Source of the DNA: Candidatus Methanoperedenaceae archaeon | GTDB lineage: Archaea; Halobacteriota; Methanosarcinia; Methanosarcinales; Methanoperedenaceae | Reading direction: 5' to 3' | DNA: 64,000 bases | Assembly (NCBI GenBank): GCA_963753595.1 | Contig: CAVWCX010000036.1 | Coordinates: 150,349-214,348 of the forward strand | Shown: positions 1 to 44,275 of the stretch, one piece after another | Position numbering within the stretch: position 1 is the first letter of the stretch | Layout of the letters: each line of letters starts with the position of its first letter | Position numbers and translations under genes: made by a program | The notes under the pieces: model-generated | The model's input: only the letters and a program-made list of their open reading frames with translations | Told to the model about the DNA's origin: nothing | The model's database searches: none

Positions 1-25
1 TCAGCTCCGCAGAGCGAAATCTGGC
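1..25. repeat. Dispersed bulged-hairpin element, copy A (cut by window edge)
   Basis: TC-A-GCTC-CGCA-GAGC-GAAATCTGGC; same pattern as copies at 2345, 27033, 30193, 35910 and 44242. Confidence 0.85.
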
Positions 26-58
26 GCCAGCCTGATGCTCTCACCGAGGCACTGCACG

Positions 59-97
59 AAGAGTGTAGAGAAAATATTTGATAATGTTGAGAAGTGC
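59..97 (+). pseudogene. Short tyrosine-recombinase remnant (KSVEKIFDNV)
   Basis: DNA nearly identical to the start of the longer integrase remnant at 2404. Confidence 0.5.
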
Positions 98-521
98 TAC
101 GATTTGTTTTAAATATGTTAAAATCCAATCGATAACGCATATGAAAAAAGTGGTAACAAAAGGTGAGACTATGGTTGGGGAAACGTTTGAAGGATCCTTG
201 TGGTTCAATTCAAGCAAAGATACCATGAGACATAAGTTGGAAGAATCTGATCAGAACTCTGGGGTTGGAATAAGTTTTGGAAAAAATTTGCATTTATTTT
301 CTTATAGCAAAGCGTATGTGGATTTGCTCTTTGACGATGATTCCAAAGGACAAGCCTTAGTGAAGAAAGATAGTTTGAAAAATTGTCCTCATTTAATTGA
401 AGAATGCATTGGAAATTGGGCACGTAAGAATGGCCTCTGGATATTGAAATTATCACAACGAAATGTACCTGTAAAATTAAAAGTAGTCCAAGACTATGAG
501 ATTTTTTATGTGTCAAAATAA
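78..521 (+). CDS. Hypothetical protein, probable cassette gene (true start likely 141 or 171)
   Basis: ORF track; stop is followed immediately by an attC-like site. Confidence 0.55.
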   Translation: MIMLRSATICFKYVKIQSITHMKKVVTKGETMVGETFEGSLWFNSSKDTMRHKLEESDQNSGVGISFGKNLHLFSYSKAYVDLLFDDDSKGQALVKKDSLKNCPHLIEECIGNWARKNGLWILKLSQRNVPVKLKVVQDYEIFYVSK

Positions 522-618
522 GTCATATCGACCAGTGAGTAAAGAACTCTTCGCTTATTTCGTTCGCTCGCCTAACTGCCGAATATACGTTCGGGCTGAT
601 ATTCAGCCGTTATATGAC
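522..618 (+). other. attC-like recombination site
   Basis: GTCATAT (522) ... GTTATATGAC (609-618) outer inverted repeat with internal hairpins; next ATG at 642. Confidence 0.55.
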
Positions 619-641
619 ATATTGCTGGAAGAGTTGCCTCG

Positions 642-1572: not shown

Positions 1573-1594
1573 AAGAAAGTAAGAAAGTAATACC

Positions 1595-2832: not shown

Positions 2833-3861
2833 ATGAAGAAAACGTCCACATTTGAAGAACGACTTTACGTCAAGTTGAGAGAGCAGATTAAAGGGAAAAA
2901 AGTTGGTTTCCTCCTTGGTGCAGGAGCCTCCTTTCTGAGCGGTAACGGGTATCCGCTTGCGAATGGGCTTTGGGAAGCAATCAGAACCCATATGCCGGAA
3001 GAAGAACAACGTTTAATCGACAATGAAATTATGCGAGATTCCACCACATTGGAACAAGCACTGGATAGGTTAGACGGGGGAAGAAACGAATATTCGACCC
3101 TCCGTCACTACATCACGAATGCGGTAGCCGCTTCGTTCATTAATCATACACCTCCTCTCGATTACCACAGAGAATTTGTTATCCGTCTGGGAACGCGGTC
3201 TGAGAAACGAATTCCCGTGTTTACACTGAATTACGACTCGCTTATTGAAATTGCTACTGACATAGAGAAACGGCCTCTTATAGACGGTTTCTTAGGTACG
3301 GTGGAGTGCTACTTCCAACCGTCTTGTTTTACAGATTATCGAGGAATATTAGAGTCACGACGAGGGCGGTCTGTTCCTGTACACACGAGTGGAATAATCA
3401 ACCTTTACAAGCTTCACGGATCTCTTGGCTGGTTTAAAGATACCGAATCCAGACTGAAACGCATTCGACCAGACATGCCATGCCCTCCAGGCTGCATCCA
3501 TCTTATGGTACCGCCTCAGAACCGCAAAGCTGCTGACACAGGAATAACACCCTACGCGACTATTTGGTCGGAGTTCCGTGCTCACCTCGCTAATGACTCC
3601 TCACGTCTGCTCAATAGGCTGGTATGCGTCGGTTATGGATTGGGTGATGGTCACGTTAATGCAGTTATTGAGTCTGCCTTAGCCCGTAATCATTTTACAC
3701 TTGTTGTTTTGGCGAAAGACCTTTGTGATGACACATTTAAACGTTGGCAGAAATCCCCAAAAACTATCATTGTCACCGAAGAACGATCTTCTCTCTATGG
3801 AGAGGAGGGGCCAGGTATGCATGATGCGTGGGCATTTGAGTGGCTAGCAAAGGAGGTATAA
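2833..3861 (+). CDS. SIR2-family NADase of a Sir2-HerA antiviral system
   Basis: GFLLGAGAS, FTLNYD, LYKLHGS, GYGLGDGHVN; translationally coupled to HerA. Confidence 0.9.
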   Translation: MKKTSTFEERLYVKLREQIKGKKVGFLLGAGASFLSGNGYPLANGLWEAIRTHMPEEEQRLIDNEIMRDSTTLEQALDRLDGGRNEYSTLRHYITNAVAASFINHTPPLDYHREFVIRLGTRSEKRIPVFTLNYDSLIEIATDIEKRPLIDGFLGTVECYFQPSCFTDYRGILESRRGRSVPVHTSGIINLYKLHGSLGWFKDTESRLKRIRPDMPCPPGCIHLMVPPQNRKAADTGITPYATIWSEFRAHLANDSSRLLNRLVCVGYGLGDGHVNAVIESALARNHFTLVVLAKDLCDDTFKRWQKSPKTIIVTEERSSLYGEEGPGMHDAWAFEWLAKEV

Positions 3862-5528
3862 TTATGTCGAATGGAAATTCGAGTTTGGTCGGTCATATAC
3901 TGGATGTACAAAGTTCGATGTTCACAGCAGACCTAATCCAAAAGGAGGAAGGTGTTTCACCTACTATCACACTTGGAGACGAGGATATCTCTGTAGGGCG
4001 ACTTGGGTCGTATATGAGAATCACACAAGGTGCTATCATCGTTATAGCGATGGTCAGCCGTATGACTGAGAAGGAAATTCTTTCTCCTTTCCCTTCCGAT
4101 GGCACGGACGTAGCACCAACAGCGGAGGCATTTGCACAGCGAACCATTCAATTGGTGCCAATTGGGTGCGTTGGCAGCGATGGTACTTTTGAACGGGGAA
4201 TATCAGTTTATCCGACGACTGGCGCAGAGGTGCATGCGATTGCGAGTTCCGAATTGGACAAGTTGTTCTTGAAGTTCCGGGACAAGCATTACGATGTGGG
4301 TGCCGTCTCATCTAATCCGACAACCCGAGTCTACCTTGACCCCTCGCCGCTGTTCGGGCGTCATTGCGCGATTCTGGGCCAGACTGGTTCAGGAAAGTCT
4401 TGGACGATAGCATCGCTCCTTCAGAAGGCAGTCTCACTAATGCCGCGAGCACATATTGTTCTTCTGGACTTACATGGGGAATATAAAAAAGCATTTGCCC
4501 CTGAGCACGCAAAGGTCATTGATGCAACGAAACTAGAGATGCCCTACTGGCTTATGACCTACTCAGAACTTACAGACCTACTCATCGACCGTACTGAACT
4601 GAGTGCACACAATCAAACGGCTTTTTTCCGCGATACCATCAACACATTAAAGCAAGAAGAAGGTGCCCGTCTTAAGTTGCCTCGAACAACAATTGATACA
4701 CCGGTGTTCTTTTCATTGGAAACCCTAAAGGAAAGGATAAAGTCAAAGAACGAAGAAATGGTACAGGGCGCCACAAAGCTTATAAAAGGTCCGATGCACG
4801 GTGACTTTGACCGTTTCCTAATGCGATTGGATAGCCGTCTCAATGATGTACGCTATGACTTCCTCCTGAAACCAACGCTTCGGAACAACTCAAGCTCTCT
4901 TGAATCTCTATTGAGGGACTTCATTGGCCTAGGGTCATCTAAGGTACCAATAACAATTATCGATCTTAGCCCAGTACCCTTCGATGTTCGTCCAACCATT
5001 ACTGCACAAATTGGACGACTAACTTTCGAATTCAACTTCTGGAATCCGAAGTACGAAGAGTTCCCGATACTACTCGTTTGTGAAGAGGCGCATGCATATG
5101 TCACGCGGGAGTCCAATTCCCAATTCGAAGGTGCACGGAAGTCGATGGAACGGATAGCCAAGGAAGGACGCAAATACGGCGTGGGCTTAGCAGTTGTCAG
5201 TCAGCGTCCACACGAAGTGTCAGAGACGGTTCTATCGCAATGCGGCACTTTTGTATGTTTAAGAATTACCAACCCGGATGACCAAGAATATATCCGGAAA
5301 CTGGTTCCCGAAGCTGAACGCGATTTGGTGAACATCCTGGCAGGAATGCGACGAGGGGAAGCGCTTGTCTTGGGAGAAGCTGTACCGATGCCTACACGCA
5401 TACAGATGGACATGCCCAGCCCGACTCCTCGGAGCAATGACATCGACTTTTATAAGTACTGGACCGAGGGACCGATAGATCTTGATGTTGCCACTATCGT
5501 TGACAGATGGAGGCGTCAAGCAAGGTAA
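3840..5528 (+). CDS. HerA/FtsK-family ATPase of Sir2-HerA (start probably 3864)
   Basis: HAS-barrel-like N-terminus, HCAILGQTGSGKS, EEAH, EGRKYG, SQRP. Confidence 0.9.
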   Translation: MASKGGIIMSNGNSSLVGHILDVQSSMFTADLIQKEEGVSPTITLGDEDISVGRLGSYMRITQGAIIVIAMVSRMTEKEILSPFPSDGTDVAPTAEAFAQRTIQLVPIGCVGSDGTFERGISVYPTTGAEVHAIASSELDKLFLKFRDKHYDVGAVSSNPTTRVYLDPSPLFGRHCAILGQTGSGKSWTIASLLQKAVSLMPRAHIVLLDLHGEYKKAFAPEHAKVIDATKLEMPYWLMTYSELTDLLIDRTELSAHNQTAFFRDTINTLKQEEGARLKLPRTTIDTPVFFSLETLKERIKSKNEEMVQGATKLIKGPMHGDFDRFLMRLDSRLNDVRYDFLLKPTLRNNSSSLESLLRDFIGLGSSKVPITIIDLSPVPFDVRPTITAQIGRLTFEFNFWNPKYEEFPILLVCEEAHAYVTRESNSQFEGARKSMERIAKEGRKYGVGLAVVSQRPHEVSETVLSQCGTFVCLRITNPDDQEYIRKLVPEAERDLVNILAGMRRGEALVLGEAVPMPTRIQMDMPSPTPRSNDIDFYKYWTEGPIDLDVATIVDRWRRQAR

Positions 5529-5903: not shown

Positions 5904-6625
5904 CTATATGTCAGGAAAAATACGACTATAAGCAATCTCGATACTCGCTCTAATTTTCATCAAGGAAGTTTCTGTTTTAAAAGGATTCTGCTGGTCTGCC
6001 AACAGACTCCAAAAAGAATTTTCATGATTCCAGCTGCTTTTTAGGTCTTTGTTTTCATCTACGATTAAAACAAATATATCCAAGTGGAAGATGACACGCA
6101 TCTCGTAAAACTGAGATTAATCTAAAAGCCGGTTTTATGAATTCATTTATTTTTGTTTCACCAATGTCGCTGTCAAATATATGAACCAACGTAGCAATAT
6201 CTAAACCCCACTTTAAATATTCAACTAATTGTCCGATCCACGTATGATATTTTGTATTATTTAAGTTCGAAGCATAAAAATATTTCGCTTCAACTCCCGC
6301 AAAGATTCTCGTGGGGGATTCTTCACAAAAAGGGGGGAGGCATGCCTGATTAAGATATCCCACGTAAGGAAATATAATCGACTTCAAAGGCTTTGACATA
6401 GTTCCTAATTTCAGTCTCATTCAACCCTATAGGGTCTAAGTAACTTTTACAATATGGGATAATCTGTTTACATAGACCCACGTGTTTCAACCATTTGCCA
6501 TTTAACGAGGGTTCCAATCCCACGTTTAAAAAACCCGATTTAGCTAACCACTCAACTGCCTCTAGCTCGCCATTTGGAAAAACTTTTTTCCCTTCAATAT
6601 TATCTGATAGATTTTTCATAGACAT
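5904..6625 (-). pseudogene. Frameshifted gene in three overlapping ORFs, possibly HD-hydrolase-like
   Basis: ORFs 6350-6625, 6055-6420 and 5904-6101 overlap in different frames; C-terminal LLADQ..SL..R weakly resembles HD domains. Confidence 0.3.
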
Positions 6626-6763
6626 CGTATCTACTTTTTAGTAGCTAGCTTATATAGTTTCTCCGCGCAGAAATGCCCCGATTTAGAAATTAGAGCATTT
6701 TAAGAGCTCCTATAAATTTCAGTATTAGCAGAAACAAGTACAATTTTATTATATTTTATATTT

Positions 6764-30192: not shown

Positions 30193-30225
30193 GTCTGATT
30201 TCAGCACCGCAGTGCGAAATCAGGC
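30193..30225. repeat. Dispersed bulged-hairpin element, copy D
   Basis: GTCTGATTTC-A-GCAC-CGCA-GTGC-GAAATCAGGC. Confidence 0.9.
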
Positions 30226-30308
30226 ATTAAGAATAATTTAAGTAATACAATAGTATTGAAATAGTAATACTACATCAGAATTATGTATGTAATAAGGCGA
30301 AAAAAAGA

Positions 30309-30941
30309 CTAACAACGGTTAATAATAGTACAGGGTCTTGCTGCATCCTTCTTTACATTTAGACTGCCCGGCAGCCTGATAAGTCTCACAATATCGGTTG
30401 TGATCGGGATATCTATCCCTACCCAATTTGGATTAATGATTTTCCTGCCATATTTTGGTCTTATTATGTAGTGACCAAAAAAATCAGCAATCTCTCTGCG
30501 TTCCGGGGTATCCAGTTTTTGTACGCATTTGTCATATACGTGGATGTGATACCCGCGGCTGCCTGAATCCACATAAAGGATGTCCTTGAACCCAAGCCGC
30601 TCTTCCAGTATCATCAATAACTTCTCACTCTGTTTCTTCGCTTCTCTGAGTGTCGGCTTTTCCAGATGGTCAAAATCAATATCGAAAATCAGATCTGCGC
30701 CTTCCCATCCCTTCTTCTTATCTTCCATTGGATAGGCGGCGGGGTCTTTATACTTCGAGGACGAAAAGTAAACGTGATCCGGCGCTGTCTCAATGAGATA
30801 AGTCCTGAGTTTCTGTACTGATGAGAACGCCCTGTGTCTCACCATCTTTTCCCCATTTTTCCTGAACCCAAACTCCCTGCTTGTAAAGTCCGGCGGCTCA
30901 TAGAGAGGAGCATGCCAATAATAATCAGAAATGCTGCTCAA
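30309..30941 (-). CDS. priS: Archaeo-eukaryotic primase catalytic subunit, compact form
   Basis: REFGF, PDHVYFS, DLIFDID, SGSRGYH, IDIPITTD..RLIRLPGS. Confidence 0.88.
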   Translation of the reverse strand: MSSISDYYWHAPLYEPPDFTSREFGFRKNGEKMVRHRAFSSVQKLRTYLIETAPDHVYFSSSKYKDPAAYPMEDKKKGWEGADLIFDIDFDHLEKPTLREAKKQSEKLLMILEERLGFKDILYVDSGSRGYHIHVYDKCVQKLDTPERREIADFFGHYIIRPKYGRKIINPNWVGIDIPITTDIVRLIRLPGSLNVKKDAARPCTIINRC

Positions 30942-31996
30942 GATATCACCTTTTTAGTTTGCTTCTTGTTTTCCAACCACACCTTTCGCCTGTAGTATAC
31001 CAGCGGGTGCACTATCTTCTTACACGATGCCTTTCCTGGACAATTACCATTAGTCGTCATAGTCGCGCAGGTCGGACAGGTATAAGCCGTTCCCGATGCG
31101 CCTGCGATGTGATTTATCTGATAATTGGTATCCTGTTCTTTGAAATCAGGCGATGCCCTGAATATCTCTGTTATCTTCTCAGGCTTCATCCCTATATTCA
31201 ACAGGAAGGTTGTCATTGCAAAGCGCATCGAGTGAGATAGATTAACATTTGCCTGGGCATCGGCTATTGCCGAGCTTATACACGGCGGGAAGCAACCTGA
31301 GCTCACTTCGCTGAATCCCTCTTTACTGAATCCCTGCTTATTTGTACGGATGCTGGCTGCTTCCTGCACCTCATTGATATACTGTTTCAGCGCTTCTTTT
31401 ATTTCTTTCGGCACTTCATGAGGCAGTCCTAACTCCACCTTCTTCCGTACAACCTCCTCCATCAGGCGCGCAAAGTCGCCTTTTGATATTGTCAGCATGC
31501 CCTCCTTTACTGTGCGGTTTGAAAGTTTCCACTTTGGCTCATGCAACACATGGGCATGGTGAATGTAATCTGTGAAGTGTATGGTAGCGCTCATGGTTCT
31601 GGCGTCTACTGTTGCGCTTATGCCAAAATCCGCTGCCAGTTCTCTCAGGTTATCAGCCCTGAAATCCATAATGTGTTCGTATGACAATTTGGCCACTGCG
31701 AGGGCATATCTTTTGGTGAGATATGTATTGTTGATACTTGAAACGATTATCCTGGCGACTGGATAAGCCAGTAATTCCTTATTCGCAGCAAGTTTGTTAT
31801 ATCTTCGATATTTTAGTGTGCCGTTCTGCAGTGCTTCAAGGACACGCCCCTTAGCTGCCGATCGGACGCTTTCATAGGCCAGATCCGTACATACATCAGC
31901 CGAACCAACCCAAGATTCCTTCATATATTCCAGGGCGCCTGTGGTACAGGGGATATTAGCAAAATCTATTATGTCCATTAGCCTCTCATATTTCAA
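30938..31996 (-). CDS. priL: Primase large subunit with Fe-S domain
   Basis: CFPPCI, LSHSMRF, YQINHIAG, YTCPTCATM...C. Confidence 0.88.
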   Translation of the reverse strand: MKYERLMDIIDFANIPCTTGALEYMKESWVGSADVCTDLAYESVRSAAKGRVLEALQNGTLKYRRYNKLAANKELLAYPVARIIVSSINNTYLTKRYALAVAKLSYEHIMDFRADNLRELAADFGISATVDARTMSATIHFTDYIHHAHVLHEPKWKLSNRTVKEGMLTISKGDFARLMEEVVRKKVELGLPHEVPKEIKEALKQYINEVQEAASIRTNKQGFSKEGFSEVSSGCFPPCISSAIADAQANVNLSHSMRFAMTTFLLNIGMKPEKITEIFRASPDFKEQDTNYQINHIAGASGTAYTCPTCATMTTNGNCPGKASCKKIVHPLVYYRRKVWLENKKQTKKVIS

Positions 31997-32543: not shown

Positions 32544-34561
32544 GTGTGCCTCGAAGCACAAGAAAGAAAGTATATAACAGGACATTTGAAGAGAATGTTA
32601 CAGCGTGAGCAATAACATTTGGTGTCCGCGGGTTAAAATCCCTCCATTTGGGTCTGCTCCCGAATGAAGAGAAAGGGTAGTGCGATATCGCAAGATATGG
32701 TGCGGAGTACCCAAGTATCGTCAACCACAGCCCTAAACAACATGTGAACCGAAAGTGGCCTTAGCGCGATGCGACATCCCTCGAGTAGATGGAAGCTTGA
32801 GCAGTAAGTGAACGCTGGGGTGGTTACGGTAGGGATGGTTGAGAATGCTCTCTTGTGTGACCGGGGGAGGTCTCATAACGTCCTCCTTGAAATTGGATAC
32901 AAACCCTACACGTTTCTGGGTAACTGGATTCCATCGAAAGGAAACAGGTAGCATAGGTATAACCTTATGGGAAAGCCGAAGCAATGCGTTATGAGAAGTC
33001 CGACGAACCCATAGTAGCAATGAAGGTCAGGCCGAGGACATACAGAACCTGCGCCGCAGGGTACAGGAGGCGACTGTACGAGGACAAAACCAGACCCAGC
33101 AAAGGGGTTCTAGATTTGGAAAGAGTTGAGGTGAACAGCACGATAACATCAATCGGATTCAAAGAAAACACCAGAAAAGTAAGCACAGTCAAAATGGCAA
33201 TAAAGCGCTATCTGGTAAATGTATATGAAGATAATGGAATAACTGCTGGAAACCAAAACCGATGGAGACAAAGATGAAAAAGTGGAATCAGCAATACCAT
33301 GACAAATTCAAGGAATTTGCTCTGATACATAAGGTATGGAGCGAGAAGAACCTTGTTCAGGCATGGAAAAGCGTGAAGGCAAATAAAGGAAGTGCTGGAG
33401 TAGATGGAATAACCATTGAACAATTTGAACAAAATCTGCAACAAAACCTAAATGAAATACACAGACTACTCAAAGAAAAACGCTATGAACCCAGGCCGGT
33501 CTTAAGGGTATTAATACCAAAAGACAACGGCAAGATGAGAAAACTTGGGATACCCACAGTCAGGGACAGAGTAGTTCAACAGGCATTAAAGAACGTACTT
33601 GAACCAATCTTTGAAGAAATATTCCTGCCACAAAGCCATGGATACAGACCTAACACTAACGCTCATGCGGCAGTCAGGAAGGGTGAAGTATTCATTAGAA
33701 GAGGCTACCACTGGGTAGTGGATGCCGACATTGAGGGATTCTTCGACCACGTTGACCATCAAATAATGATGGATCTTGTATGCGAAAAAGTCGCAGATGG
33801 CAGAGTTCTTTCTCTCATAGAATCTTTCCTTAAAAGTGGAATAATGAATGATGGTGTATTTGAGGAGAGTATGGAAGGTACTCCCCAGGGAGGAAATATC
33901 AGTCCACTGCTGTCGAATATTTACTTAAATCACTTCGACAGAAGAATGGGGGACTTTGGATATTTGCTCCTCCGATACGCTGATGACATCGTTATTTTCT
34001 GCAAGTTTGTATCAGATGCACAGGATGCACTCAAACGAGCAAAGGAAATTCTGGAAGGAGAATTAAAGTTAAAACTCAGTCCAGAAAAGACCAAAATCGC
34101 TCCTGCAAGAAGTAAGGGAGTTGAATTTCTCGGCTTCCGTTTCAATGGACGTTATAGAAGCCCAAGGGATAAGGCAAAGAAGAAGTTCAAGGAAGAGATA
34201 AAACGACGGACAAGGCGTCAGCAGCCTGTGAACCTTGAAACTGTAATACGTTTCCTCAATCCTGTAATTCGAGGTTGGGGGAATTATTTCAAGGAAGGTA
34301 CAGTAAAGACATTGTTCAGTGAATTGGATGGTTATATAAGGGGACGCTTGAGGAGCTTTGAGGCTAAAAAGCGTAACTGGAACACCATTTTATTCACGCT
34401 TCCTGAGTCTGAACTGAGAAAAATGGGGTTGGCTTCACTTACTTCGTTGCTGAATGAACCTATCTCCTGCAAAGGGAAAAGCCAAACGAAAGCTGCATAC
34501 GGGAAATCCGTTCGTGCAGTTTGATGAGGAGTAGATGGCGAAAGCCATCCGCTTACTCTAG
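32544..34561 (+). mobile_element. Group II intron
   Basis: 5' GTGTG; domain V AAGCTGCATACGGGAAATCCGTTCGTGCAGTTT (34490-34522); domain VI hairpin; internal RT ORF; clean host-gene reconstitution. Confidence 0.9.
33262..34524 (+). CDS. ltrA: Group II intron reverse transcriptase/maturase without endonuclease domain
   Basis: GSAGVDG, RKLGIPTVRDRVVQ, GTPQGG.ISPLLSNIYL, RYADD, FLGF, RGWGNYF. Confidence 0.95.
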   Translation: METKMKKWNQQYHDKFKEFALIHKVWSEKNLVQAWKSVKANKGSAGVDGITIEQFEQNLQQNLNEIHRLLKEKRYEPRPVLRVLIPKDNGKMRKLGIPTVRDRVVQQALKNVLEPIFEEIFLPQSHGYRPNTNAHAAVRKGEVFIRRGYHWVVDADIEGFFDHVDHQIMMDLVCEKVADGRVLSLIESFLKSGIMNDGVFEESMEGTPQGGNISPLLSNIYLNHFDRRMGDFGYLLLRYADDIVIFCKFVSDAQDALKRAKEILEGELKLKLSPEKTKIAPARSKGVEFLGFRFNGRYRSPRDKAKKKFKEEIKRRTRRQQPVNLETVIRFLNPVIRGWGNYFKEGTVKTLFSELDGYIRGRLRSFEAKKRNWNTILFTLPESELRKMGLASLTSLLNEPISCKGKSQTKAAYGKSVRAV

Positions 34562-35644: not shown

Positions 35645-35924
35645 GGAGGACGCTCCTTTTCCCTATGCCCAAGACTTCGCGTACTTTCTGTGCTTCAATT
35701 ATTATTTCATCCATACTGCTGTTGACCTGGGAGCGGAACTCTTCCAGATTCTCCGCGGATTCCAAAGCATCCAGTACATCCGACTTTATCATCTGTGCAT
35801 AGTGCTTCAGTTCGTCTATCTGCATCTGGATGGTTTCCGGTAATTCTACATATTTCATAGTGTTCTCCATTCGGTTTCGTAATTTTACTACTCCTTGTTT
35901 CCTGAACACGTCAGATTTCAGCAC
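35637..35924 (-). CDS. Small helical hypothetical protein (true start probably about 35870)
   Basis: ORF; the annotated 5' end runs into hairpin E. Confidence 0.55.
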   Translation of the reverse strand: MLKSDVFRKQGVVKLRNRMENTMKYVELPETIQMQIDELKHYAQMIKSDVLDALESAENLEEFRSQVNSSMDEIIIEAQKVREVLGIGKRSVLHG

Positions 35925-35942
35925 CGCAGTGCGAAATATGGC
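35910..35942. repeat. Dispersed bulged-hairpin element, copy E
   Basis: GTCAGATTTC-A-GCAC-CGCA-GTGC-GAAATATGGC. Confidence 0.9.
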
Positions 35943-36047
35943 ATCATCGAAATATCATTGATACCTTTTGCCGTGTTTCAAGGAGGAGAAAAAAAAGCAT
36001 TCGCAGCCATCCCTGCCTTATCACCCTATTAATCATGATTTCTAGTG

Positions 36048-36079
36048 AAGCTCCCAATCGCAGCAGAGCTGCGGGGTAT
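36048..36079. mobile_element. Isolated IS200/IS605-type end hairpin
   Basis: AAGCTCCC..CGCAGCAGAGCTGCGGGGTAT resembles subterminal palindromes of this family. Confidence 0.4.
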
Positions 36080-36397
36080 AGCGATTAAGATCAACCTTCC
36101 ACTTAGTAACCAACCGCCGTTCTGAAGAACGAGGCATCGGCGCAGGTGCATGAAGTTTTCATTGCATTTGCTACTGTGTGTATATCAACTAAAGGGGGCA
36201 TGAAATTACTGTATTCTAATAATGTGTTGGATATAATATTGCAAATGCTTATGAAAATCAGCAAGTTATTTGGCTTTTGTGTTCATGCATCAGCCTACAA
36301 CTATGAATTCAAATATAATTAATAGCTTTTAGATGCAGTTATAAGCAATTTCATTTAGACAATCGCTGTCCAATATCATTAAAAAATACTAGGTGGG

Positions 36398-37129
36398 TTA
36401 TAAATTCTGCCAATATTCATAGAGACTACGCTCAATATTATTTAGAGGGATATCTTGACTATACTCTCCACCATTAATACCTTTATAATCTACATGAATC
36501 TTACTTTTTGATACGGCATCAGAATATTCATTTTTAAAGAAAATTAATATATGCCAGCCATCATCTTTTTGTAAAACCTGAATGGGAATATGGCCTTCCG
36601 TTCCCATCGTATTTATAAAATATTCCCCCATAAAATTGATATAGATATCAGTAGCAATGGTATTTGTAATATTTTGGCAAAAGATATAAAGGCGTTCATT
36701 GTGTATATTACGCATCATTATTTTGAATATTAGAAATGGTCTTTCTCGTTTTTCTACATCTCCAACATGTCTTTGGACTTGAATCACTTCCATTTTCCAA
36801 CTACGGAGAAGCTCTTCATGACTATTCTTCCATTCCAATAATAATTCTTTTGTATATCTTTTTGGGTCTTTGTCGACCATATCACTACAATTATGACATA
36901 GTAAGATAGCATTCTTATTACTTCCACGCTCTTTTTTTGTTTGGCTTGGGTCATAACGTGAGCCACCTTCACTTGCGGCACTTATATGAGCAACAATTCC
37001 ATCTGATAATGACTTATCTTCATCAGAATGAGGCCCAATTGTTAGATCATGACAATCTGGATTGTTACATATATAACAAGACCTTTCTGCAACTTTTCTT
37101 CTAATGTTCAGTGTAAATTCGTCTCTCAT
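36398..37129 (-). CDS. HNH-nuclease-domain protein
   Basis: CNNPDC ... AHISAASEGGSRYD ... NAILLCHNC..MVD. Confidence 0.8.
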   Translation of the reverse strand: MRDEFTLNIRRKVAERSCYICNNPDCHDLTIGPHSDEDKSLSDGIVAHISAASEGGSRYDPSQTKKERGSNKNAILLCHNCSDMVDKDPKRYTKELLLEWKNSHEELLRSWKMEVIQVQRHVGDVEKRERPFLIFKIMMRNIHNERLYIFCQNITNTIATDIYINFMGEYFINTMGTEGHIPIQVLQKDDGWHILIFFKNEYSDAVSKSKIHVDYKGINGGEYSQDIPLNNIERSLYEYWQNL

Positions 37130-37446
37130 CGAATGACCTCGTTAAAGACAGGCGATTTATTTATAGCCCCATAGCCTTCTTTATCGCTTCAACAGCATAA
37201 AAACTCCTTGTTTTATAGGTATTTCTACACATAGAAGTCATTATAAATAATACGATGAACAAATTCCTTTTCCATGAATGCCTATTCTTTGCAGTTTTAT
37301 CCATGCCCATTTTTAGTGCCATAATTTTTACACTGGTTCAAGATATCCTGAGGTGCACCCAACCCCCATCGTCTTCAGCCACCTATACCCCTTATTAAAG
37401 ATTGAATTTCAATGGGGATAAACCTTATTAATCTACTGCTTTTATT

Positions 37447-38028
37447 TTACAACTTGTAGATCATATAAAATCCAGATTCGTCTATATCATAACCACCTCT
37501 GAATTCGCTACTAACAGAGAACAAATTGGGATGGGGTCTTAAATTACCGGTTTCAGCCTCATCTTTATAATAATAAAGCACCAAACAAAACAGCCCTGCA
37601 ATAGAATTTAAAGTGTTCTGGAGATTAGCATTCTGAAAATCTTTATCTCTCTGATGCTTAACACCGTTATAGGCATTCCACCAGATAGGAGTTTTATTTT
37701 CGTTCCAATTTAACCACGGAGTTAGGGTTAACCCATAGCGTGGAATTTGTATCGTCATAACTCTAATTTTTGGAAAAATCGGATTCAGAATATTTCGATA
37801 GTGTTCAATATTTTCAGCTTTTATACCAGGCTTTTCTTTGGTACATAGGAGTTTGGCGACCACATCAACTTCTGAAGCTGCTGATAAAAGTAGGCGTACC
37901 AATTCTATCGAATAAGTCGTATAATTTTTTTCCGTAAACTCTATATATCTCGATAATTTTTCAGCATCCGAATCAAAGGTTAATAAATAATTCCATTGAA
38001 CAAGCTTGGGATTTTCTTCAATACCCAT
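37447..38028 (-). CDS. Conserved hypothetical protein of accessory islands
   Basis: YSIEL..LL..A.SEVD, P.WW.AYN.VKH.R motifs; low GC. Confidence 0.65.
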   Translation of the reverse strand: MGIEENPKLVQWNYLLTFDSDAEKLSRYIEFTEKNYTTYSIELVRLLLSAASEVDVVAKLLCTKEKPGIKAENIEHYRNILNPIFPKIRVMTIQIPRYGLTLTPWLNWNENKTPIWWNAYNGVKHQRDKDFQNANLQNTLNSIAGLFCLVLYYYKDEAETGNLRPHPNLFSVSSEFRGGYDIDESGFYMIYKL

Positions 38029-38435
38029 GAATATACCTCCTTTGCCTCCTTAATATAAATCCATAGTACGTATGAAGATATGTGTCTATGGATATGTTTC
38101 AATTCGTGTTGGTGTTATTCCAATGTGCAACACATCTCAATTGATTGACCTAAAAATTATCTATATTTCGCATGGTAGGGATTCATAAGGGTATTAAACC
38201 GATAGAACCCATAAATTAAAATAAATGTTCGTTATACAAATAAAATAGCTTTACATTGGCGTATTACTGTATCAAATAAGTTCTCAGGTTGGTATATACA
38301 AGCAAGAAGTATTTTATTTAATTTGAAATATATTACAAAAATATCGTAGATTTGTTTATAAATCATTCAAAAGAGTTTTAGATATATATAAGTCATCACA
38401 ATATATATTTATGTTAAACTATTTGAGTAATTATC

Positions 38436-39749
38436 ATGAGTTATAAAAAATGTATGGTTAAAACTGAAAGATTCTGGGGGTTTGGAGTATGCGAAAGACA
38501 AATAATTAGAGATGAAAAGTGTATATTTCATTTGGCAGACAAGACAGAAGAAGAAGCCCAACAATTCAAAATAGAATTTATGAAAGAATTTGAAAATAAT
38601 GAAGGGGAGCTACATTTTGAAAAAGTTATATTCCCCGATTCAATAGGATTTTTATTAAAAAAAATTGAAAAACCTATTTTTTTTAACGGAGCTCATTTCT
38701 GTAAAGAAGCACTTTTCAATGGGGCTAAATTTAAAGAAAAAGCGGATTTCTCTGGGGCTAAATTCAGTGGTCAGACAGATTTCTGTGAAGCTGAATTTAG
38801 TGGGGAAGGGATTTTCTCGGAGGCTAAATTTAAAAAGAAAGCAGATTTTTCTGAGGCTAAATTCAGTGATGAGACAAATTTCTTTAAAGCCGAATTCAGT
38901 GGGGAAGCAATTTTCTTACGAGCTAAATTCAATAATATAGTATATTTTGATAATGCTATTTTTTGCGGTGAAGTGGATTTCGGATGGGCTAAATTCGATA
39001 AAGCAGCATATTTTCCCGACACTCAGTTCGATAAAAAAGCAGATTTTTATGAGTCTACATTTGAGAGTGAAGGTCTTTTCACAAGGATGATATTTAATAA
39101 TGAATCATTTATTAAATTTAGATATAGCCAATTTCTTAAACCAAAGTATGTACGATTTTATGACGTAAATTTAAGTTTTTTTTCCTTTTTATGCACAGAT
39201 ATAACCGAAGTAGAATTTTTAAAAGAAAAATGGGCAAAAAAGAATGGTAGATGTATTGTCAGGGATGAATCGGAAATTTTGAAAGAGCTCGATACAACAT
39301 ATGATGCAGTAGCTCAATTGTATCGCAGGCTCAGACGGAATTATGAAGATAATTACAGGTTCGCTGAAGCTGGCGATTTCTTCATGGGCGAGATGGAGAT
39401 GCGGAGACTTGATGTAACCCCACGATTTAGGAATAAAAACATAAAAAAGATAGAATTGTTGTTTAAGAGGAACTTTTCTCTATTAGGCATATACAAACAT
39501 CTAAGTCTTTATGGGGAAAGTTATTTTCGTCCTGCAATTTGTGCTTCAATTGTTATAATATTTTATCCATTGATAATTCATTGGCTATTAAATTTGCGTC
39601 TACCTGATGATTCTCTTACTTATTTGAGAACAAGCGCTTCTTCTTTTTTCCAAATGGATAACAAATATGTTGGGGAACGGCTATTAGGCATTCTAATACT
39701 TGGCTTGTTTTTCATTTCTTTAAAGAGAAAATTTGAAAGAAAAAGATGA
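38436..39749 (+). CDS. Pentapeptide-repeat protein with C-terminal membrane segment
   Basis: Repeated A.F...ADFS.AKF units; YGES + TM helices. Confidence 0.85.
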   Translation: MSYKKCMVKTERFWGFGVCERQIIRDEKCIFHLADKTEEEAQQFKIEFMKEFENNEGELHFEKVIFPDSIGFLLKKIEKPIFFNGAHFCKEALFNGAKFKEKADFSGAKFSGQTDFCEAEFSGEGIFSEAKFKKKADFSEAKFSDETNFFKAEFSGEAIFLRAKFNNIVYFDNAIFCGEVDFGWAKFDKAAYFPDTQFDKKADFYESTFESEGLFTRMIFNNESFIKFRYSQFLKPKYVRFYDVNLSFFSFLCTDITEVEFLKEKWAKKNGRCIVRDESEILKELDTTYDAVAQLYRRLRRNYEDNYRFAEAGDFFMGEMEMRRLDVTPRFRNKNIKKIELLFKRNFSLLGIYKHLSLYGESYFRPAICASIVIIFYPLIIHWLLNLRLPDDSLTYLRTSASSFFQMDNKYVGERLLGILILGLFFISLKRKFERKR

Positions 39750-39870
39750 AAAAAAACAATTTCAGATGTTATGTGTTTCTTAAGATATCCATTCATTTTT
39801 TTTCATAGTTCAGCACTCTTCGAGTTCGACGAGTAGACCGAGCATAAGCACGGATAATGAACGAAGATTA

Positions 39871-40296
39871 CCCCGTAAGCTGTGCCTTCGCAGGCTTCGA
39901 ACCTCACCCCAAACCCCTTAGGGGCTTCTACCCAACAATTCAAAGGGCTTTCTACCCCAACCCCATACTTGAAAGTACAGGGCGTGATAGCGTTTTTGCT
40001 TATAAAATTCTCTCACAGTTTTGAGAAGAAATGCACTTCTCCACTACTTCCCAGCCCTGCCCGACAGAGCCGTGGTAGCAGCCGGGAGCCCAGAGATGAC
40101 CTTCACACCAATCTCTGATATGTGGGAATTCCTGTCTCAATATCCTGCTTGATTTTCTTTTGATTTTCTTGGCAATAAAACTAATGACATATTTCGGCGG
40201 GTATTGGAAAAATATGTGGACATGGTTCATATTCACGGCAATATCTATAATTTTTATGCCCATTTCCACGCATGTTCCCTGATAATACCCTCCCCA
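39871..40296 (-). mobile_element. tnpA: Truncated IS200/IS605 element: tnpA fragment plus end palindromes
   Basis: HVHIF HUH motif, LWAPGCY..SVG; catalytic Tyr position reads Cys; N-terminus missing; CCCCTTAGGGG palindrome. Confidence 0.8.
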
Positions 40297-40297
40297 T

Positions 40298-43200
40298 TTA
40301 ATCCATATCATACCCTTCTTCTTTCAGCATCTTTAACGTGAAATCCCGGTAGCTCAGCCACTTTGCAGGGTCGAATTCCGATGCATCCTGGTAGTCGATT
40401 CCTTCATCTATCGCCTCTGACTTCGCATCCATCAACTGCTGCATGTATTCGTCTATCGAACCCTTCGCCCTGAGCAGATATATTCTCGGTTTCCTGGTCT
40501 GCTGAGGTCTCAGGATCCTGCTGTATGCCTGGATCTGTTTACTTGGCGTCCAGGACGTATCTGCTATGATGACCACATTAGCCTGGGGAATGTTGAGTCC
40601 CGTTTCGCCGCAAGTCGTAGTAGCGAGTAGAACGTGTGTACCATTATTCTTGAAATCATTGAGAACTACGTTTCTATTCTTGATTCCCTGCGAACCGATG
40701 AATACATGAGACTTAATTCCCCTGGTCTTGAGTTCCTGCTGCATGAGCTTCTGGAAATCAGGTCGCTCCGAGAAGACAATGATCTTCTCTTGTTTAGAGA
40801 GCGCCTCTTCTATCAGGTCGAGAGTTCGTTGTTGCTTTGTGGTGATGCCCCCCGGCCACTGTATATGCTCATTGTTCGTCTTCTTCGATTGGGGAATAGT
40901 GCTGGCGAACTGCAGTTGTGTCAGGTGTGCCAGTACAACCATCTGGTCAATCTTATGACCTTCAGGGCTTTCCTTTTCCAGCCGCAATTGTTCCTTGAAC
41001 CATGCAGCGAACTCGTCCAGCCAGTGCTTGTAATGCTTCACCTGTTCAGGTGACATCTTGATGAGTTCTGTGGATATCTCAGGCTTCGGTATCGTCACAA
41101 AGGCTGCCACCTCTGGCTCTTCCCTCTGCCGTCTGATAATCTTCGGCGACATCATCGCCCACCACTTTGCCGTATCCTTTATCTTAGGCATCTCCCTGGA
41201 CTTCATGCCTTTGTCCAGTGTCTGCTCGAACTGCGGCGTCACCCATTCGATGGAAATGAAATCTTCTTTGAACTGCCTGGTGCCTGTGGTGTAGCCGCTT
41301 TTGTACCCGCGCTCCGAGATTTGCTCGATTGGATTATGGTAACCGTAAGGATTGAGCTCCGTGCCGTCGCCCCAGCCAAAGACAAGAAGGCTGAAGATGT
41401 TGCGCGGATAATTGGCTATCGGCGTGCCGGTGCTGAGAAGCTTGTATCTGGCTTTCAGCATCCTGACAGCCTTTGCCTGTTCACTATCCTTTGCTTTTAT
41501 TTTATGGGCTTCATCCACAGCAATGAACTGGAACCTGCGCCGCATTGCCTTCGCGAAGGTCTTCCTGGTATGCTCGTTCAAAGGTTTCCAGAGTTTGTTG
41601 TATGCGATAAGATTGAACTTCTTCAGTTGTTTCAGGTCCTTCTCTGATTCAATAACCTGATAGTCCGTTATGCCCAGTTCCCTGAACTCTTTTATGAACT
41701 CTTCTTTCAATTTTGGTTCGACGATAATCAGGTTATGCTTTGTTCCATAGAGAAAAGCCAGTGCTGTTATACCTCTCGTTTTTCCCAGTCCCATGGACCA
41801 GCAAAGAAGATTGGTATTCTTCAGGCTCATCCTGATAACATCATCCTTCTGGAAGTCCCAGAGCCAGTCGATACCCAGCGCCTTAAGCTGCTTCTCTCTG
41901 GCTTTGTAGAGATCGGGATACATCGACCTGATACCGTTGTGCTCATTCAGGCAGATCCAATCGCCATCCTTCCTGATATACTGCTCAAACGGCGTAAGCT
42001 GCCTCTCCAGCCAGCGCTTCTTCTTCACGATCCATGTTGTCACCTGGGAATCAAGTGATACATCCAGGTTCGCAACAGACAAGTCGCTTATCATGTTCGG
42101 TATGAATCCTGAATTGTTAAGAATGTGCTTTCTTCTAAACCTGACGTCCGATTCCTGCGTATACGCCTTGAGTCCATCATTCCACTGCTGCCCCATTCCA
42201 TCCAGATACTGTCGGACCTTGAGCGCTTCAAGCAGATTCGAAGATCTGATGACCAGGTTGGAAGAGTCCGGAGCGAGCGCCACCTTGACTCCAACGCGCC
42301 CACTATCGGGCAATGGAAGGTCCGGTTCGGTGACTGTTACCTGTTGCTCTTTCCATGTCTGTGGCATCGTGTGCTCCTGGAAAGCGTTGTCAATAAGGCT
42401 CAGGTCTTCTAATGCTTCATTATAATGCTGTGTTCGTTTCCACTCTTCCAGGACGACATCCAGATCACTAAGTTTCGCAATTGTACGAACAAAAGCACTC
42501 TTGCGATCGTAATGGTGAAACCTGGTGTGATTTATGACGATACTGCATGGCCATGCTGTGCCTGCATCTTTCCATACTTCTGCTGGCATATCCACTCTCA
42601 ATACCAGCTCAGCGTGCTCATTTACCCACTTCTCGAAGGTGTAGGTATTCTCATTTGTGAAGTAACCCATTGGCAGCACGGCAGCCACATACTTTGATGC
42701 ATTCTTGATGGCGATTTCAAGCGCTGCGATGTGCGACTGGATGCTTGAGTTGGGACCAAGACCCCCCCAGCTGGCATTTTCAAGCGGGATATTCTTCTGT
42801 TCTAATTGCATCGAGAATGGCGGGTTGATCAAGAAATAATCCCCCTGGATCGTCGGATGGTTGATCAGCGAATCCCGGACTATATGCGCATCAGGCCAGA
42901 GCCTTGCAGCCATGTGATACGCCTGCTCTTCTAACTCTATTCCTGTTTTCAGGCATGATGGCGAAAGATATCGAAACATCCCACCGATACCGCAGCTATT
43001 GTCAACGACTAATGCCTTTTTCTTTGTCTTATCAAGGCCAAGTGCTGCTGTGACGAACTGCACGATCTCTTTTAGGGTAAAGAATTGTGCATAATTCGCT
43101 TCCCTGCGTCTTGCCATATCTGCAAGTCCGCGGTCGCCTTCTATCTTTACTGTTTGGCCGAGGGTCTTGTAATTATGCAAGATGAAATCCCTGATAGTGA

Positions 43201-43543
43201 ATATATCATTTGCTGGAGTTTCCAGGATGCTCTTCCATAAAGATCCGTTTGGATTTCCCACGATATCAAACGGGATATCCGGTAATTTGAATACCTCCGG
43301 CTGTTCTGTGATATAATAGCGGGTTGACCCAAAGCCGGGAAACTCCTCAAACCCTGACACATCGGGAAGCGAGTACTCAACAGTCACAAGCTTCTCGATA
43401 GGGTTTGTAGCCTCCGGAACGATAGTTGGGGTTACAGGGGTAACCAGCGCAAGAACCTGTTGGGTCGCCGCTATTGTAATTGTATCACTATCGTTATTCT
43501 CTACAAAAGTCGAGAAAGCATCCCAGGTTAATTGTACTGCCAT
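40298..43543 (-). CDS. N6-adenine methyltransferase fused to SNF2 helicase (DarB-like architecture)
   Basis: QFFT, DNSCGIG, NPPF; MGLGKT, DEAH, TGTP, GLNIP, Q..SRI.R. Confidence 0.88.
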   Translation of the reverse strand: MAVQLTWDAFSTFVENNDSDTITIAATQQVLALVTPVTPTIVPEATNPIEKLVTVEYSLPDVSGFEEFPGFGSTRYYITEQPEVFKLPDIPFDIVGNPNGSLWKSILETPANDIFTIRDFILHNYKTLGQTVKIEGDRGLADMARRREANYAQFFTLKEIVQFVTAALGLDKTKKKALVVDNSCGIGGMFRYLSPSCLKTGIELEEQAYHMAARLWPDAHIVRDSLINHPTIQGDYFLINPPFSMQLEQKNIPLENASWGGLGPNSSIQSHIAALEIAIKNASKYVAAVLPMGYFTNENTYTFEKWVNEHAELVLRVDMPAEVWKDAGTAWPCSIVINHTRFHHYDRKSAFVRTIAKLSDLDVVLEEWKRTQHYNEALEDLSLIDNAFQEHTMPQTWKEQQVTVTEPDLPLPDSGRVGVKVALAPDSSNLVIRSSNLLEALKVRQYLDGMGQQWNDGLKAYTQESDVRFRRKHILNNSGFIPNMISDLSVANLDVSLDSQVTTWIVKKKRWLERQLTPFEQYIRKDGDWICLNEHNGIRSMYPDLYKAREKQLKALGIDWLWDFQKDDVIRMSLKNTNLLCWSMGLGKTRGITALAFLYGTKHNLIIVEPKLKEEFIKEFRELGITDYQVIESEKDLKQLKKFNLIAYNKLWKPLNEHTRKTFAKAMRRRFQFIAVDEAHKIKAKDSEQAKAVRMLKARYKLLSTGTPIANYPRNIFSLLVFGWGDGTELNPYGYHNPIEQISERGYKSGYTTGTRQFKEDFISIEWVTPQFEQTLDKGMKSREMPKIKDTAKWWAMMSPKIIRRQREEPEVAAFVTIPKPEISTELIKMSPEQVKHYKHWLDEFAAWFKEQLRLEKESPEGHKIDQMVVLAHLTQLQFASTIPQSKKTNNEHIQWPGGITTKQQRTLDLIEEALSKQEKIIVFSERPDFQKLMQQELKTRGIKSHVFIGSQGIKNRNVVLNDFKNNGTHVLLATTTCGETGLNIPQANVVIIADTSWTPSKQIQAYSRILRPQQTRKPRIYLLRAKGSIDEYMQQLMDAKSEAIDEGIDYQDASEFDPAKWLSYRDFTLKMLKEEGYDMD

Positions 43544-43561
43544 AAAAACTCCTAAAAAAAC

Positions 43562-44131
43562 CTACAAATCTTGAGTAATACCCTTCGTGCTATCCCAGAA
43601 TCTTTCGCCGCTCATTACCAGCGCATATACGTGTTTACACGGCATCTTCGAGCTTATCCCGCGGTTTATGAAATCCTCACAATTGCATCTACCCATGCCA
43701 GCACTTTTATCCACATCTACACCGAACTTTCTTCCATTATGGGCTGTGCATATCCAGCCATCACCATCGGGGTAGAGTTCGAACGACATCTCTTCGGATG
43801 TGGCTCGCATGATCCTGTCGCTGCGCTGTTTACTGTTTGTGGCATCAAAGATCAGTTCAACCATTCGTGAGTCCGGTTTCTGGCATGTCGCTATCTGTTG
43901 CCGATGAGATTTTCCAGTGTCCTCGATTGTGATTATTTCACCATGTTCTATTGTTTCCAGGAAATCTTCGACAGCCTGTTCTGCCAGACCAGTTGCCCGC
44001 TTCTGAGCTTCGGAATAATCCCCATCGACTCCCGCTACCCTGAATCCGAACTCAGCGGTGTGAACCACTTTACCCACAGGCACTTGAATCCCCCTTCTTG
44101 CCTCAACGGCATCAATAAACATCTGGCTCAC
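43562..44131 (-). CDS. SWIM zinc-finger protein
   Basis: CNCEDF...PCKH. Confidence 0.8.
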   Translation of the reverse strand: MSQMFIDAVEARRGIQVPVGKVVHTAEFGFRVAGVDGDYSEAQKRATGLAEQAVEDFLETIEHGEIITIEDTGKSHRQQIATCQKPDSRMVELIFDATNSKQRSDRIMRATSEEMSFELYPDGDGWICTAHNGRKFGVDVDKSAGMGRCNCEDFINRGISSKMPCKHVYALVMSGERFWDSTKGITQDL

Positions 44132-44241
44132 CGCTTTCTTCCTTCATTCGACTTCCTTGGCGACAAACTCTCTCAAGATCCATTTTCTTCTCCTTCTGGC
44201 TCATGCCAGAGTTAATGAATCTGTTCAGTTTGCCTGAACAC

Positions 44242-44275
44242 GACAGATTTCAGCACTCGCAGTGCGAAATCTGGC
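44242..44275. repeat. Dispersed bulged-hairpin element, copy F
   Basis: GACAGATTTC-A-GCAC-TCGCA-GTGC-GAAATCTGGC. Confidence 0.9.

Follow-up and report, generated by a model that had tools for sequence, protein, structure and literature searches.

A co-oriented bulged-hairpin cassette in the early half of a Methanoperedens provirus, and its likeness to the promoter/stem-loop elements of tailed viruses

The promoter early stem-loops (PeSLs) of T4-type phages are composite motifs of ~100 bp, situated in hyperplastic genome regions, that join a strong promoter to AT-rich tracts and a stem-loop. They are located between stop codons and the next Shine-Dalgarno (SD) sequence or start codon, and inter-PeSL recombination deletes, inserts and circularises the flanked genes, giving rise to mini-circles (Arbiol et al. 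2010, PMC2839356). A later study extends PeSLs to distant T4-like phages (Comeau et al. 2014, PMC4122927), and a third likens to them a feature of halovirus HGTV-1, in which most open reading frames (ORFs) of one genome arm are preceded by a TATA-like stretch and by an inverted repeat (Sencilo and Roine 2014, PMC3950731). In the HGTV-1 sequence (NC_021328), 21 co-oriented 68-nt copies of this motif were found within 16 kb, with TATA-like boxes flanking a 7-8-bp inverted repeat. Here we describe a repeated hairpin unit from a 64,000-nt window (contig C36, positions 150349-214348; GenBank CAVWCX010000036.1) of a 2.89-Mb draft genome of 37 contigs from the Methanoperedenaceae (GCA_963753595.1), referred to as G000; other G-numbers denote the genomes compared with it. 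The window lies largely within what is most likely one ~108-kb head-tailed provirus at tRNA-Gln of Candidatus (Ca.) Methanoperedens, rather than in an island and a distinct integrated element as the first-pass annotation supposed. Our reading, held with about as much confidence as doubt, is that the unit may be a PeSL-like cassette of promoter and stem-loop, giving the early half of the provirus its organisation and serving as a linker for the exchange of multi-gene defence cargo.

The likeness to PeSLs covers several traits. Both are short composite intergenic motifs of a tailed virus, with promoter-type elements (putative in the Methanoperedens unit), AT-rich tracts and a stable stem-loop; both are repeated within a genome, concentrated in its plastic non-structural part and placed between the stop of one gene and the SD or start of the next. 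The ends of indels and replacements between close relatives fall inside the motif, and a motif-flanked cassette in one genome corresponds to a single motif in a relative. The Methanoperedens unit differs in carrying archaeal TATA-like boxes, where PeSLs have sigma-70 -35/-10 elements, and in having one architecture (a 14-bp bulged stem and a CCTGAA box), where PeSLs fall into five subclasses of GC-rich stem-loops. With the HGTV-1 motif it shares an archaeal head-tailed virus setting and a co-oriented intergenic inverted repeat between TATA-like boxes, before genes of the non-structural arm; however, the two sequences are dissimilar, and the HGTV-1 stem is 7-8 bp long, unbulged and placed before almost every small ORF, with wobble pairs on both strands in the few variants checked by eye, whereas the Methanoperedens unit is rarer, longer and bulged, includes the CCTGAA box and brackets multi-gene blocks. 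A gathering-threshold scan of the window against Rfam returned two tRNAs and a group II intron and left the hairpin unmatched; five unit-bearing loci scanned by E-value (limit E=5) were likewise unmatched at the units, and the hairpin is not described in the literature searched, including the main text of a preprint on Methanoperedens extrachromosomal elements. The earlier remark that the hairpin was not recognised as a described family holds for its sequence, unmatched in Rfam, and fails for the kind of element, which has already been described in the PeSLs and the HGTV-1 motif.

The six copies listed by the first-pass annotation were all recovered, all on the + strand, and were delimited with a covariance model as follows.

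Positions 1-28, + strand: hairpin unit 1 (3' part), with its 5' start 21 nt upstream of the window.
Positions 2331-2380, + strand: hairpin unit 2.
Positions 27019-27067, + strand: hairpin unit 3, upstream of the gene at 26613-26978 (- strand), whose start is 41 nt away.
Positions 30179-30228, + strand: hairpin unit 4, 84 nt from the PriS stop and 44 nt from the start of the gene at 29791-30135 (- strand).
Positions 35896-35945, + strand: hairpin unit 5, heading the 35637-DUF6573-PriL-PriS block, with variable cargo on its right side.
Positions 44228-44278, + strand: hairpin unit 6, 12 nt past the stop of the gene at 44287-44691 (- strand) and upstream of the SWIM-SNF2 genes.

Unit 1 is ~30 nt upstream of a RadC gene that runs leftwards, outside the window. 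The conserved unit is ~50 nt long and has the form TTNCCTGAA-MNC-hairpin-RYC(A): the TTNCCTGAA box, three variable bases, a 10-bp outer stem, an unpaired A, a 4-bp inner stem, a loop of 3-6 nt and RYC(A). The first-pass annotation had given it a shorter extent. Folded as single-stranded DNA (ssDNA), all six copies adopt the predicted bulged hairpin (-9.6 to -14 kcal/mol, z-scores -2.7 to -4.9). A fuzzy regular-expression scan of all 37 contigs, allowing up to 3 substitutions, gave 17 matches, six of them the known copies; the other 11 have 3 substitutions each, and the hairpin is absent from them. Covariance model R1 likewise gave six matches in G000, every one in this provirus. A degenerate seventh core lies outside the window, at -1715 to -1695 (L188:14633-14653; negative positions are to the left of the window). 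It has the inner stem and loop of the units and an outer stem of GGGGGG/CCCCCC, lacks the CCTGAA box, has a U at the bulge in G000 and retains an AT-rich box ~28 nt ahead of the stem base; homologues occur at G057:C176:14037, at G024:C33:16819 and on G050:C15, and in two relatives the flanking pair is swapped, G-C for A-T. One RNA-library contig matches the hairpin of unit 3 alone (27022-27055) and continues into GC-rich sequence unlike the provirus; it may represent a copy in another context or a chance match.

Conservation of the fold was assessed in a structure alignment (A3) of 98 copies (90 distinct), metagenome copies included. Over the 90 distinct copies and the 14 pairs of the stem, 95.0% of 1260 cells are paired, and double-sided changes with pairing kept occur in six of the pairs (23 cells); none of 500 column shuffles attained the observed pairing or compensation values, and pairing is 14-44% in slid registers. 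Variation is absent from five of the 14 pairs, and the bulged A is present in all six copies of G000 and in 89 of 90 overall, so that the hairpin appears to be read for its sequence as well as its shape. The proposal that structure is selected is borne out, sequence being read in addition, and the supposedly invariant A, constant here, has one exception elsewhere. The inner stem of copy 2 is mismatched (GCAC/TTGC), and the covariation claimed for the outer-stem CWG is partial, copies 1-3 having T.T or C.T at a pair that is unpaired in 37 of 90 copies. Unpaired cells are concentrated at two outer-stem positions, chiefly as T.T at one and G.A at the other.

The cells divide into 1151 Watson-Crick, 46 G.T, 2 A.C and 61 other combinations, and counting by flank cluster (56, not fully independent) leaves 33 G.T events against 2 A.C. 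This excess of G.T identifies the + strand, which is antisense to the core genes, as the strand with preserved pairing, and makes a minus-strand RNA or a symmetric duplex site an unlikely source of the asymmetry, as neither predicts G.T over A.C. The pattern indicates that the fold is selected on the + strand, where it may act either as RNA or as ssDNA. Emphasis had earlier been placed on a UNCG loop of the minus strand; the asymmetry shows that pairing is preserved on the other strand, and the best fit among the original suggestions is that of a structured regulatory signal, though not on the strand favoured at the time. A mutation bias towards G was considered as the origin of the G.T excess and dropped, as the GC skew of the + strand is negative in the provirus core. 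The loop is conserved in neither sequence nor length (3-6 nt) and reads CGCA on the + strand (UGCG on the minus strand) in 23 of 44 copies. Within the box, CTGAA could pair with a TTCAG made up of the left arm and the bulged A, so a second dyad or an alternative 5-bp helix is possible; both parts are invariant.

All units are intergenic. Of the 32 units on assembled contigs, 24 have a minus-strand ORF as their left neighbour, with its start 23-101 nt from the unit in 21 of the 24 (mode 41-49 nt), and on the right side a core gene (PriS, PriL or the gene after the terminase large subunit, TerL) stops 2-17 nt away in 9 units; these gene positions bear out the view that copies head blocks of co-oriented genes. 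In 38 flank clusters (<70% identity) anchored on the CCTGAA box, A/T content rises to 76-87% at six of the eight positions from -21 to -14, compared with 45-60% around them, and in 48 clusters anchored on the stem end a second peak of 69-85% lies at +8 to +13. Read rightwards, the left boxes have the sequence TTWTAAAG(G); the right ones are similar in the leftward direction, and both resemble the boxes ~26 nt upstream of two host tRNA-Gln genes (two examples, by eye). The distance from TATA box to transcription start in archaea is usually ~26 nt. With this spacing, rightward transcription from the left box is predicted to begin at the first stem bases, so that a + strand RNA would carry the whole hairpin at its 5' end, and leftward transcription from the right box is predicted to begin near the loop, so that leftward mRNAs would lack the full hairpin; both predictions fit the strand asymmetry.

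The cassette as we envisage it would span ~100 nt, comprising an AT-rich TATA-like box, TTNCCTGAA, the 14-bp hairpin with its bulged A, RYCA and a second AT-rich box, and would head the transcription units of the early, replication half of the provirus. Transcription could be controlled through recognition of the + strand hairpin by a virus or host protein via the stem core, the bulged A and the CCTGAA box; in the simplest version, the left TATA-like box would drive a rightward transcript from the hairpin base and the right box would serve the leftward genes. Recombination between copies would be expected to exchange cargo because the same 50-100 nt recur in direct orientation, and could insert, delete or swap the intervening multi-gene cargo while leaving operons unbroken. 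Such exchange might be homologous or provoked by the palindrome, for example via the SbcCD-like nuclease of the provirus. The sequences themselves show the repeat, pairing specific to one strand, constant distances to AT-rich boxes, the position with respect to genes and the breakpoints; we infer promoter activity, transcription start, binding protein and recombination route.

Exchange at the units was traced through the cargo of the provirus, in which the first 26 kb of the window consist of cargo rich in defence-type genes.

Positions 642-1472, + strand: metallophosphoesterase, cargo between units 1 and 2.
Positions 1862-2272, + strand: PIN_3 protein, cargo between units 1 and 2.
Positions 2833-5528, + strand: SIR2-like and HerA-like proteins, a defence-type pair, cargo right of unit 2.
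Positions 35985-40199, no single strand: variable cargo right of unit 5, including a pentapeptide-repeat gene, nonhomologous to the G002 provirus.

The larger cargo ORFs of window positions 1-26000 include one of 1091 aa at 10956-14231. Alignment of related elements shows homology breaks at unit edges, as had been suggested for gene-content breakpoints. In comparison with the G002 provirus (65-99% identity in the core proteins shared), cargo replacements start 91 nt from unit 4 and ~40 nt from each of units 3 and 5; the G002 flanks of the 35985-40199 cargo align at 84% on the left and 95% on the right, and no unit is present at the cargo boundary at 40199. Among unit-centred pairs with at least 100 nt of homology on the left (n=68), homology is lost at +4 to +6 in 8 and at +13 to +18 in 9, and among those with long homology on the right (n=55) it begins at -10 to -17 in 7. 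Ends of high-scoring segment pairs (HSPs) lie within 100 nt of a unit in 44 of 299 cases, against 2.9% of the sequence, a count that includes ends due to mere divergence and is set against a generous null of all sequence. The metallophosphoesterase and PIN genes occur inside the homologous element in G007, G024 and G057, and their cassette is situated between two units (1 and 2) in G000 and beside one unit in G007 and G024. Unit 2 is chimeric, with its left 18 nt and stem like the 'hp3-like' units of G057 and G050 and a right flank of copy-1 type. At ~21375-21385 of G044:C49 (L061 9375-9385), a half unit broken off at the stem apex comes after the metallophosphoesterase-PIN cassette; it consists of the box, left arm, bulge and GCA and is fused to a truncated DUF6573 gene. 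Because breakpoints are scattered, occurring at either edge (5' or 3'), at the apex and as far as 77 nt into the flanks, homologous or palindrome-provoked exchange is favoured over a fixed crossover.

Several observations weigh against a PeSL-like cassette. There are 6-8 copies per provirus, compared with ~50 per T4-type phage, and the PeSL stem-loop is a sense terminator, whereas the Methanoperedens fold is selected antisense to the core genes, which makes a sense terminator role unlikely; in the sequences inspected, neither strand has a T-run after the hairpin. The antisense fold, the bulge and the conserved box are left unexplained by the published PeSL model. At units 3 and 5 the left box is also correctly spaced for leaderless leftward transcripts, which leaves its polarity unproven, and the right neighbour is on the + strand in just 10 of ~20 units (excluding 11 with an abutting core gene or a short recombinase-remnant ORF), so that a rightward transcript would often be antisense. 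Two metatranscriptome runs contain solely contigs of relatives (90-99% identity) from which strand, starts and ends are unreadable; parts without RNA-contig cover were counted as no evidence. The 5-fold enrichment of breakpoints shrinks with an intergenic-only null, about one in ten intergenic gaps holding a unit, and the truncated recombinase gene beside one type of context, described below, is unpredicted by a purely regulatory reading. For PeSLs, moreover, experiments have demonstrated promoter activity, terminator activity and mini-circles, whereas the Methanoperedens unit is described here from sequence.

The phage-type gene set and a 16-nt repeat of a tRNA 3' end are the grounds for a single provirus.

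Positions -54446 to 54060 (G000:C36:95902-204408): the provirus, bounded by the 16-nt repeat at tRNA-Gln.
Positions 30309-30941, - strand: PriS, in the conserved core block between units 5 and 4.
Positions 30938-31996, - strand: PriL, in the same block between units 5 and 4.
Positions 40298-43543, - strand: SNF2/methylase-like helicase, in the core block headed by unit 6.
Positions 43562-44131, - strand: SWIM protein, in the core block headed by unit 6.
Positions 44692-46308, - strand: TerL (PHROG 675, E 2e-27; 25-28% identical to phage TerLs).
Positions 47455-49539, - strand: MCM helicase.
Positions 50326-50727: ribbon-helix-helix (RHH) protein.
Positions 52750-53958, - strand: tyrosine integrase of the provirus, at its right end, 8.5 kb from the nearest unit.
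Positions 53967-54039, - strand: tRNA-Gln, at the right end of the provirus.

The exact 16-nt repeat of the tRNA-Gln 3' end is at -54446 (E 0.005). To the left of the window the provirus encodes RadC (beside copy 1), two oligonucleotide-binding (OB)-fold proteins like single-stranded DNA-binding protein or RPA, a KaiC-like ATPase, two TATA-binding proteins (TBPs) and ParA, as well as a portal, a DUF2213 prohead-protease-like protein, an SbcCD-like pair, a 2257-aa protein and a 770-aa discoidin-domain protein. An N4-like virion RNA polymerase that reads the hairpin was considered for the 2257-aa protein; sequence searches of Pfam, PHROGs and PDB sequences matched no polymerase. From right to left, in the direction of transcription, the core order is Int...MCM-TerL-[unit]-SWIM-SNF2-cargo-[unit]-DUF6573-PriL-PriS, continuing as [unit]-cargo-[unit]-three small genes...cargo-[unit]-RadC; these blocks are shared by all proviruses compared and the stretches between them vary. 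The DUF6573 gene is split by a group II intron (32544-34561, + strand; reverse transcriptase/maturase ORF 33262-34524) that is precisely missing from the G002 provirus, and RNA-library contigs with the joined form 32543->34562 may represent spliced RNA or intron-less relatives. On G048:C31 (reverse strand; locus L053/L052), PriL and PriS are parted by a four-gene insertion that includes a 712-aa ORF, and a hairpin unit lies directly against the PriL stop.

Matches to R1 were found in 16 of 49 genomes of the genus, with 1-8 copies each, and wherever a listed contig holds several they are co-oriented. Of 41 relatives including G000, 7 have the exact pattern, among them 6 of 24 other genomes of the genus and none of 16 genomes from other genera of the order, and all nine genomes with a close TerL (at least 84% identity) also have hairpins; this distribution confines the unit to one provirus lineage. 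In a scan of 185,579 species genomes, multi-copy matches belong solely to Methanoperedens or unclassified Methanobacteriota metagenome-assembled genomes (MAGs), and single bacterial matches are near the chance number and fail the full model. All seven pattern matches in the viral_contigs set likewise fail the covariance model. By a rough expectation of ~70 chance matches in 596 Gb, most single matches in the genome_contigs and metagenome_contigs sets are due to chance; metagenome contigs nevertheless hold at least ~55 further true copies. The structural half of the provirus contains zero full units, the degenerate core at -1715 being alone there. In a related lineage, contig G017:C20 (TerL 38-43% identical) has zero R1 matches; its replication region carries another nested-hairpin repeat (86-130 nt) in two co-oriented copies separated by 5 kb (L345:1489-1620 and 6549-6681), with weak folding z-scores of -0.6 to -2.0 and unproven homology to the Methanoperedens unit.

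The unit could also be a dedicated attC-like site, the + strand hairpin being the folded-ssDNA substrate of a tyrosine recombinase that reshuffles mostly-defence cassettes in the provirus, an explanation that we regard as unlikely. It was among the proposals of the first-pass annotation, and its strand-specific fold and breakpoints were confirmed, whereas no intact linked recombinase was found and the crossover does not fall at one point. Like integron attC sites, the units are co-oriented, strand-specific folded hairpins with an extrahelical base at cassette boundaries, and their cargo is rich in defence and toxin-antitoxin genes. Strand-specific pairing, the one near-invariant bulged base (89/90) and the strict direct orientation speak for such a site, as do the defence-type nature of the cargo (SIR2-HerA, PIN, metallophosphoesterase), which differs between proviruses otherwise 84-99% identical, the ending of homology at unit edges, the chimeric unit 2 and the occurrence of the same cassette in different slots. 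Site-specific crossover would, however, be expected at a single point, and the breakpoints are scattered. attC sites carry R''/L''-L'/R' boxes and a GTTRRRY core; neither these boxes nor the core is present in the A3 consensus, and the central stem is invariant in sequence, whereas attC sites conserve structure alone. The Methanoperedens blocks are multi-gene, include conserved core operons besides cargo and have putative promoters of their own, and the constant spacing to TATA-like boxes and the nearness to gene starts are unexpected for such a site. Integron components (IntI, attI and Pc) are lacking, and the recombinase sequences beside the units are decayed C-terminal Xer-like fragments only.

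Two mobile-element remnants bear on this question.

Positions 2404-2589, + strand: decayed 3' fragment of an Xer-like tyrosine recombinase gene, abutting unit 2 (frame 2, Pfam E 0.003).
Positions 40000-40311, - strand: IS200-type Y1 transposase remnant (103 aa, profile positions 32-120), overlapping the end of the SNF2 gene.

The position of the Xer-like fragment, directly against the 3' side of copy-1-type units, would suit a dedicated site. Recombinase remnants had been reported after both units of the supposed island; one follows copy 2, while after copy 1 just ~77-100 nt of that flank are left, and their start at the same codon simply reflects homologous DNA. In G007 the homologous flank is nearly intact except for two stops, and it matches the end of an intact 366-aa integrase of G064 at 76% identity. 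A tblastn search with this integrase gave 12 fragment matches in 8 sequences, all from residue 266 onwards and nearly all just to the right of a copy-1-type unit, and no N-terminal halves; the fragments trace to a single ancestral truncation at the hairpin, inherited and once copied. An intact recombinase conserved beside the hairpins was not found. The remnant shows a rearrangement that ended at the hairpin, not recombinase action there. A split integrase of SSV type, with the hairpin as an att site inside int, was dropped, as only C-terminal fragments exist and the frame through the hairpin is weak. A stronger form of the attC-like proposal, in which the hairpin is a virus-borne integron-like ssDNA site, with flipped-out A and CCTGAA, that captures defence modules and the Xer-like gene is the fossil of its recombinase, strikes us as slightly more doubtful still.

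Elements of the IS200/IS605 and REP/RAYT kinds resemble the unit in their co-oriented imperfect hairpins, unpaired base and conserved 5' flank, and a Y1 (HUH) gene is present in the window; it is, however, a decayed cargo remnant, and hairpins are present in proviruses without Y1. The remnant retains the HUH motif, has Cys at the position expected for the catalytic Tyr (by eye) and is N-terminally truncated. In G002 the stretch homologous to its first 38 codons is non-transposase sequence; contigs C1, C9 and C7 hold related copies, and a trace of 28 residues was found in 1 of 10 other contigs. The candidacy of the hairpin as an IS200/IS605 or RAYT substrate was dropped on account of this truncated gene, its missing catalytic Tyr and its near absence from other hairpin proviruses. 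A solitary CRISPR repeat (RNA anti-CRISPR) has low probability; no CRISPR array is assembled in G000 and no genome of the genus has array-like counts of R1 or pattern matches, although MAGs often miss arrays.

It is improbable that the inverted repeat and the CTGAA-N10-TTCAG dyad are bound as duplex DNA by a provirus regulator, the hairpin never forming. A double-stranded operator of this kind would account for the placement beside TATA-like boxes and ahead of gene starts, for the invariant central stem and for the complementarity of the CCTGAA box to TTCAG including the bulged A, the bulge being perhaps a by-product of overlapping dyads; the RHH protein at 50326-50727 is a candidate regulator, and the mycobacteriophage stoperators and lambda operators offer comparisons. 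Mirror transitions should then be equally frequent, however, and G.T stands at 46 to 2 for A.C (33 to 2 by cluster); six pairs have changed on both sides with pairing kept, and variation of the loop between 3 and 6 nt would rotate the half-sites of a dimer.

A hairpin acting in the gene-sense, minus-strand mRNA, as a processing or stability signal, an attenuator or an operator in the 5' untranslated region with a UNCG-type loop, is more improbable again. The location 2-17 nt past stops in 9 units and upstream of SD-led starts would suit it, as would the minus-strand UGCG loop in about half of copies (23/44), and one RNA contig of a relative covers a gene and its leader and ends at the stem base of unit 4 (30195), albeit in unstranded data in which contigs break at repeats. 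The wobble asymmetry is nevertheless the reverse of that expected, the 46 G.T cells being C.A mismatches in a minus-strand RNA, the loop is unconserved in sequence and length, and no minus-strand U-run follows the hairpin.

Least probable is a replication signal, with the + strand hairpin as an ssDNA initiation or priming site or an entry point of recombination-dependent replication for PriSL and MCM: for all that the provirus encodes PriS, PriL, MCM, RPA-like OB-fold proteins and an SbcCD-like pair and that the fold is strand-specific with copies on one strand only, the Frpo/ssi-like priming proposed earlier gained no specific support, the + strand would be the leading-strand template if the core genes are co-directional with the fork, the copies are tied to no origin, 6-8 sites beside gene starts and TATA-like boxes are not needed for priming, and we know of no comparable archaeal priming hairpin.

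Methanoperedens is a key anaerobic methane oxidiser whose viruses are barely described, and the comparison defines a family of ~100-kb tailed proviruses with MCM, PriSL, two TBP genes and defence cargo, together with a repeated cassette at the places where provirus modules are organised and exchanged. The unit offers a handle for finding its binding factor, in the form of a 50-nt ligand represented by 98 natural variants (90 distinct). Should it prove to be a dedicated ssDNA recombination site, the outcome would be an exciting one. If instead the PeSL analogy is true, T4-type phages, a halovirus and the provirus of a methanotroph have one recurring solution in common, and a small promoter/stem-loop unit would both regulate genes and act as a portable recombination linker, which bears on how viruses acquire defence and counter-defence genes.

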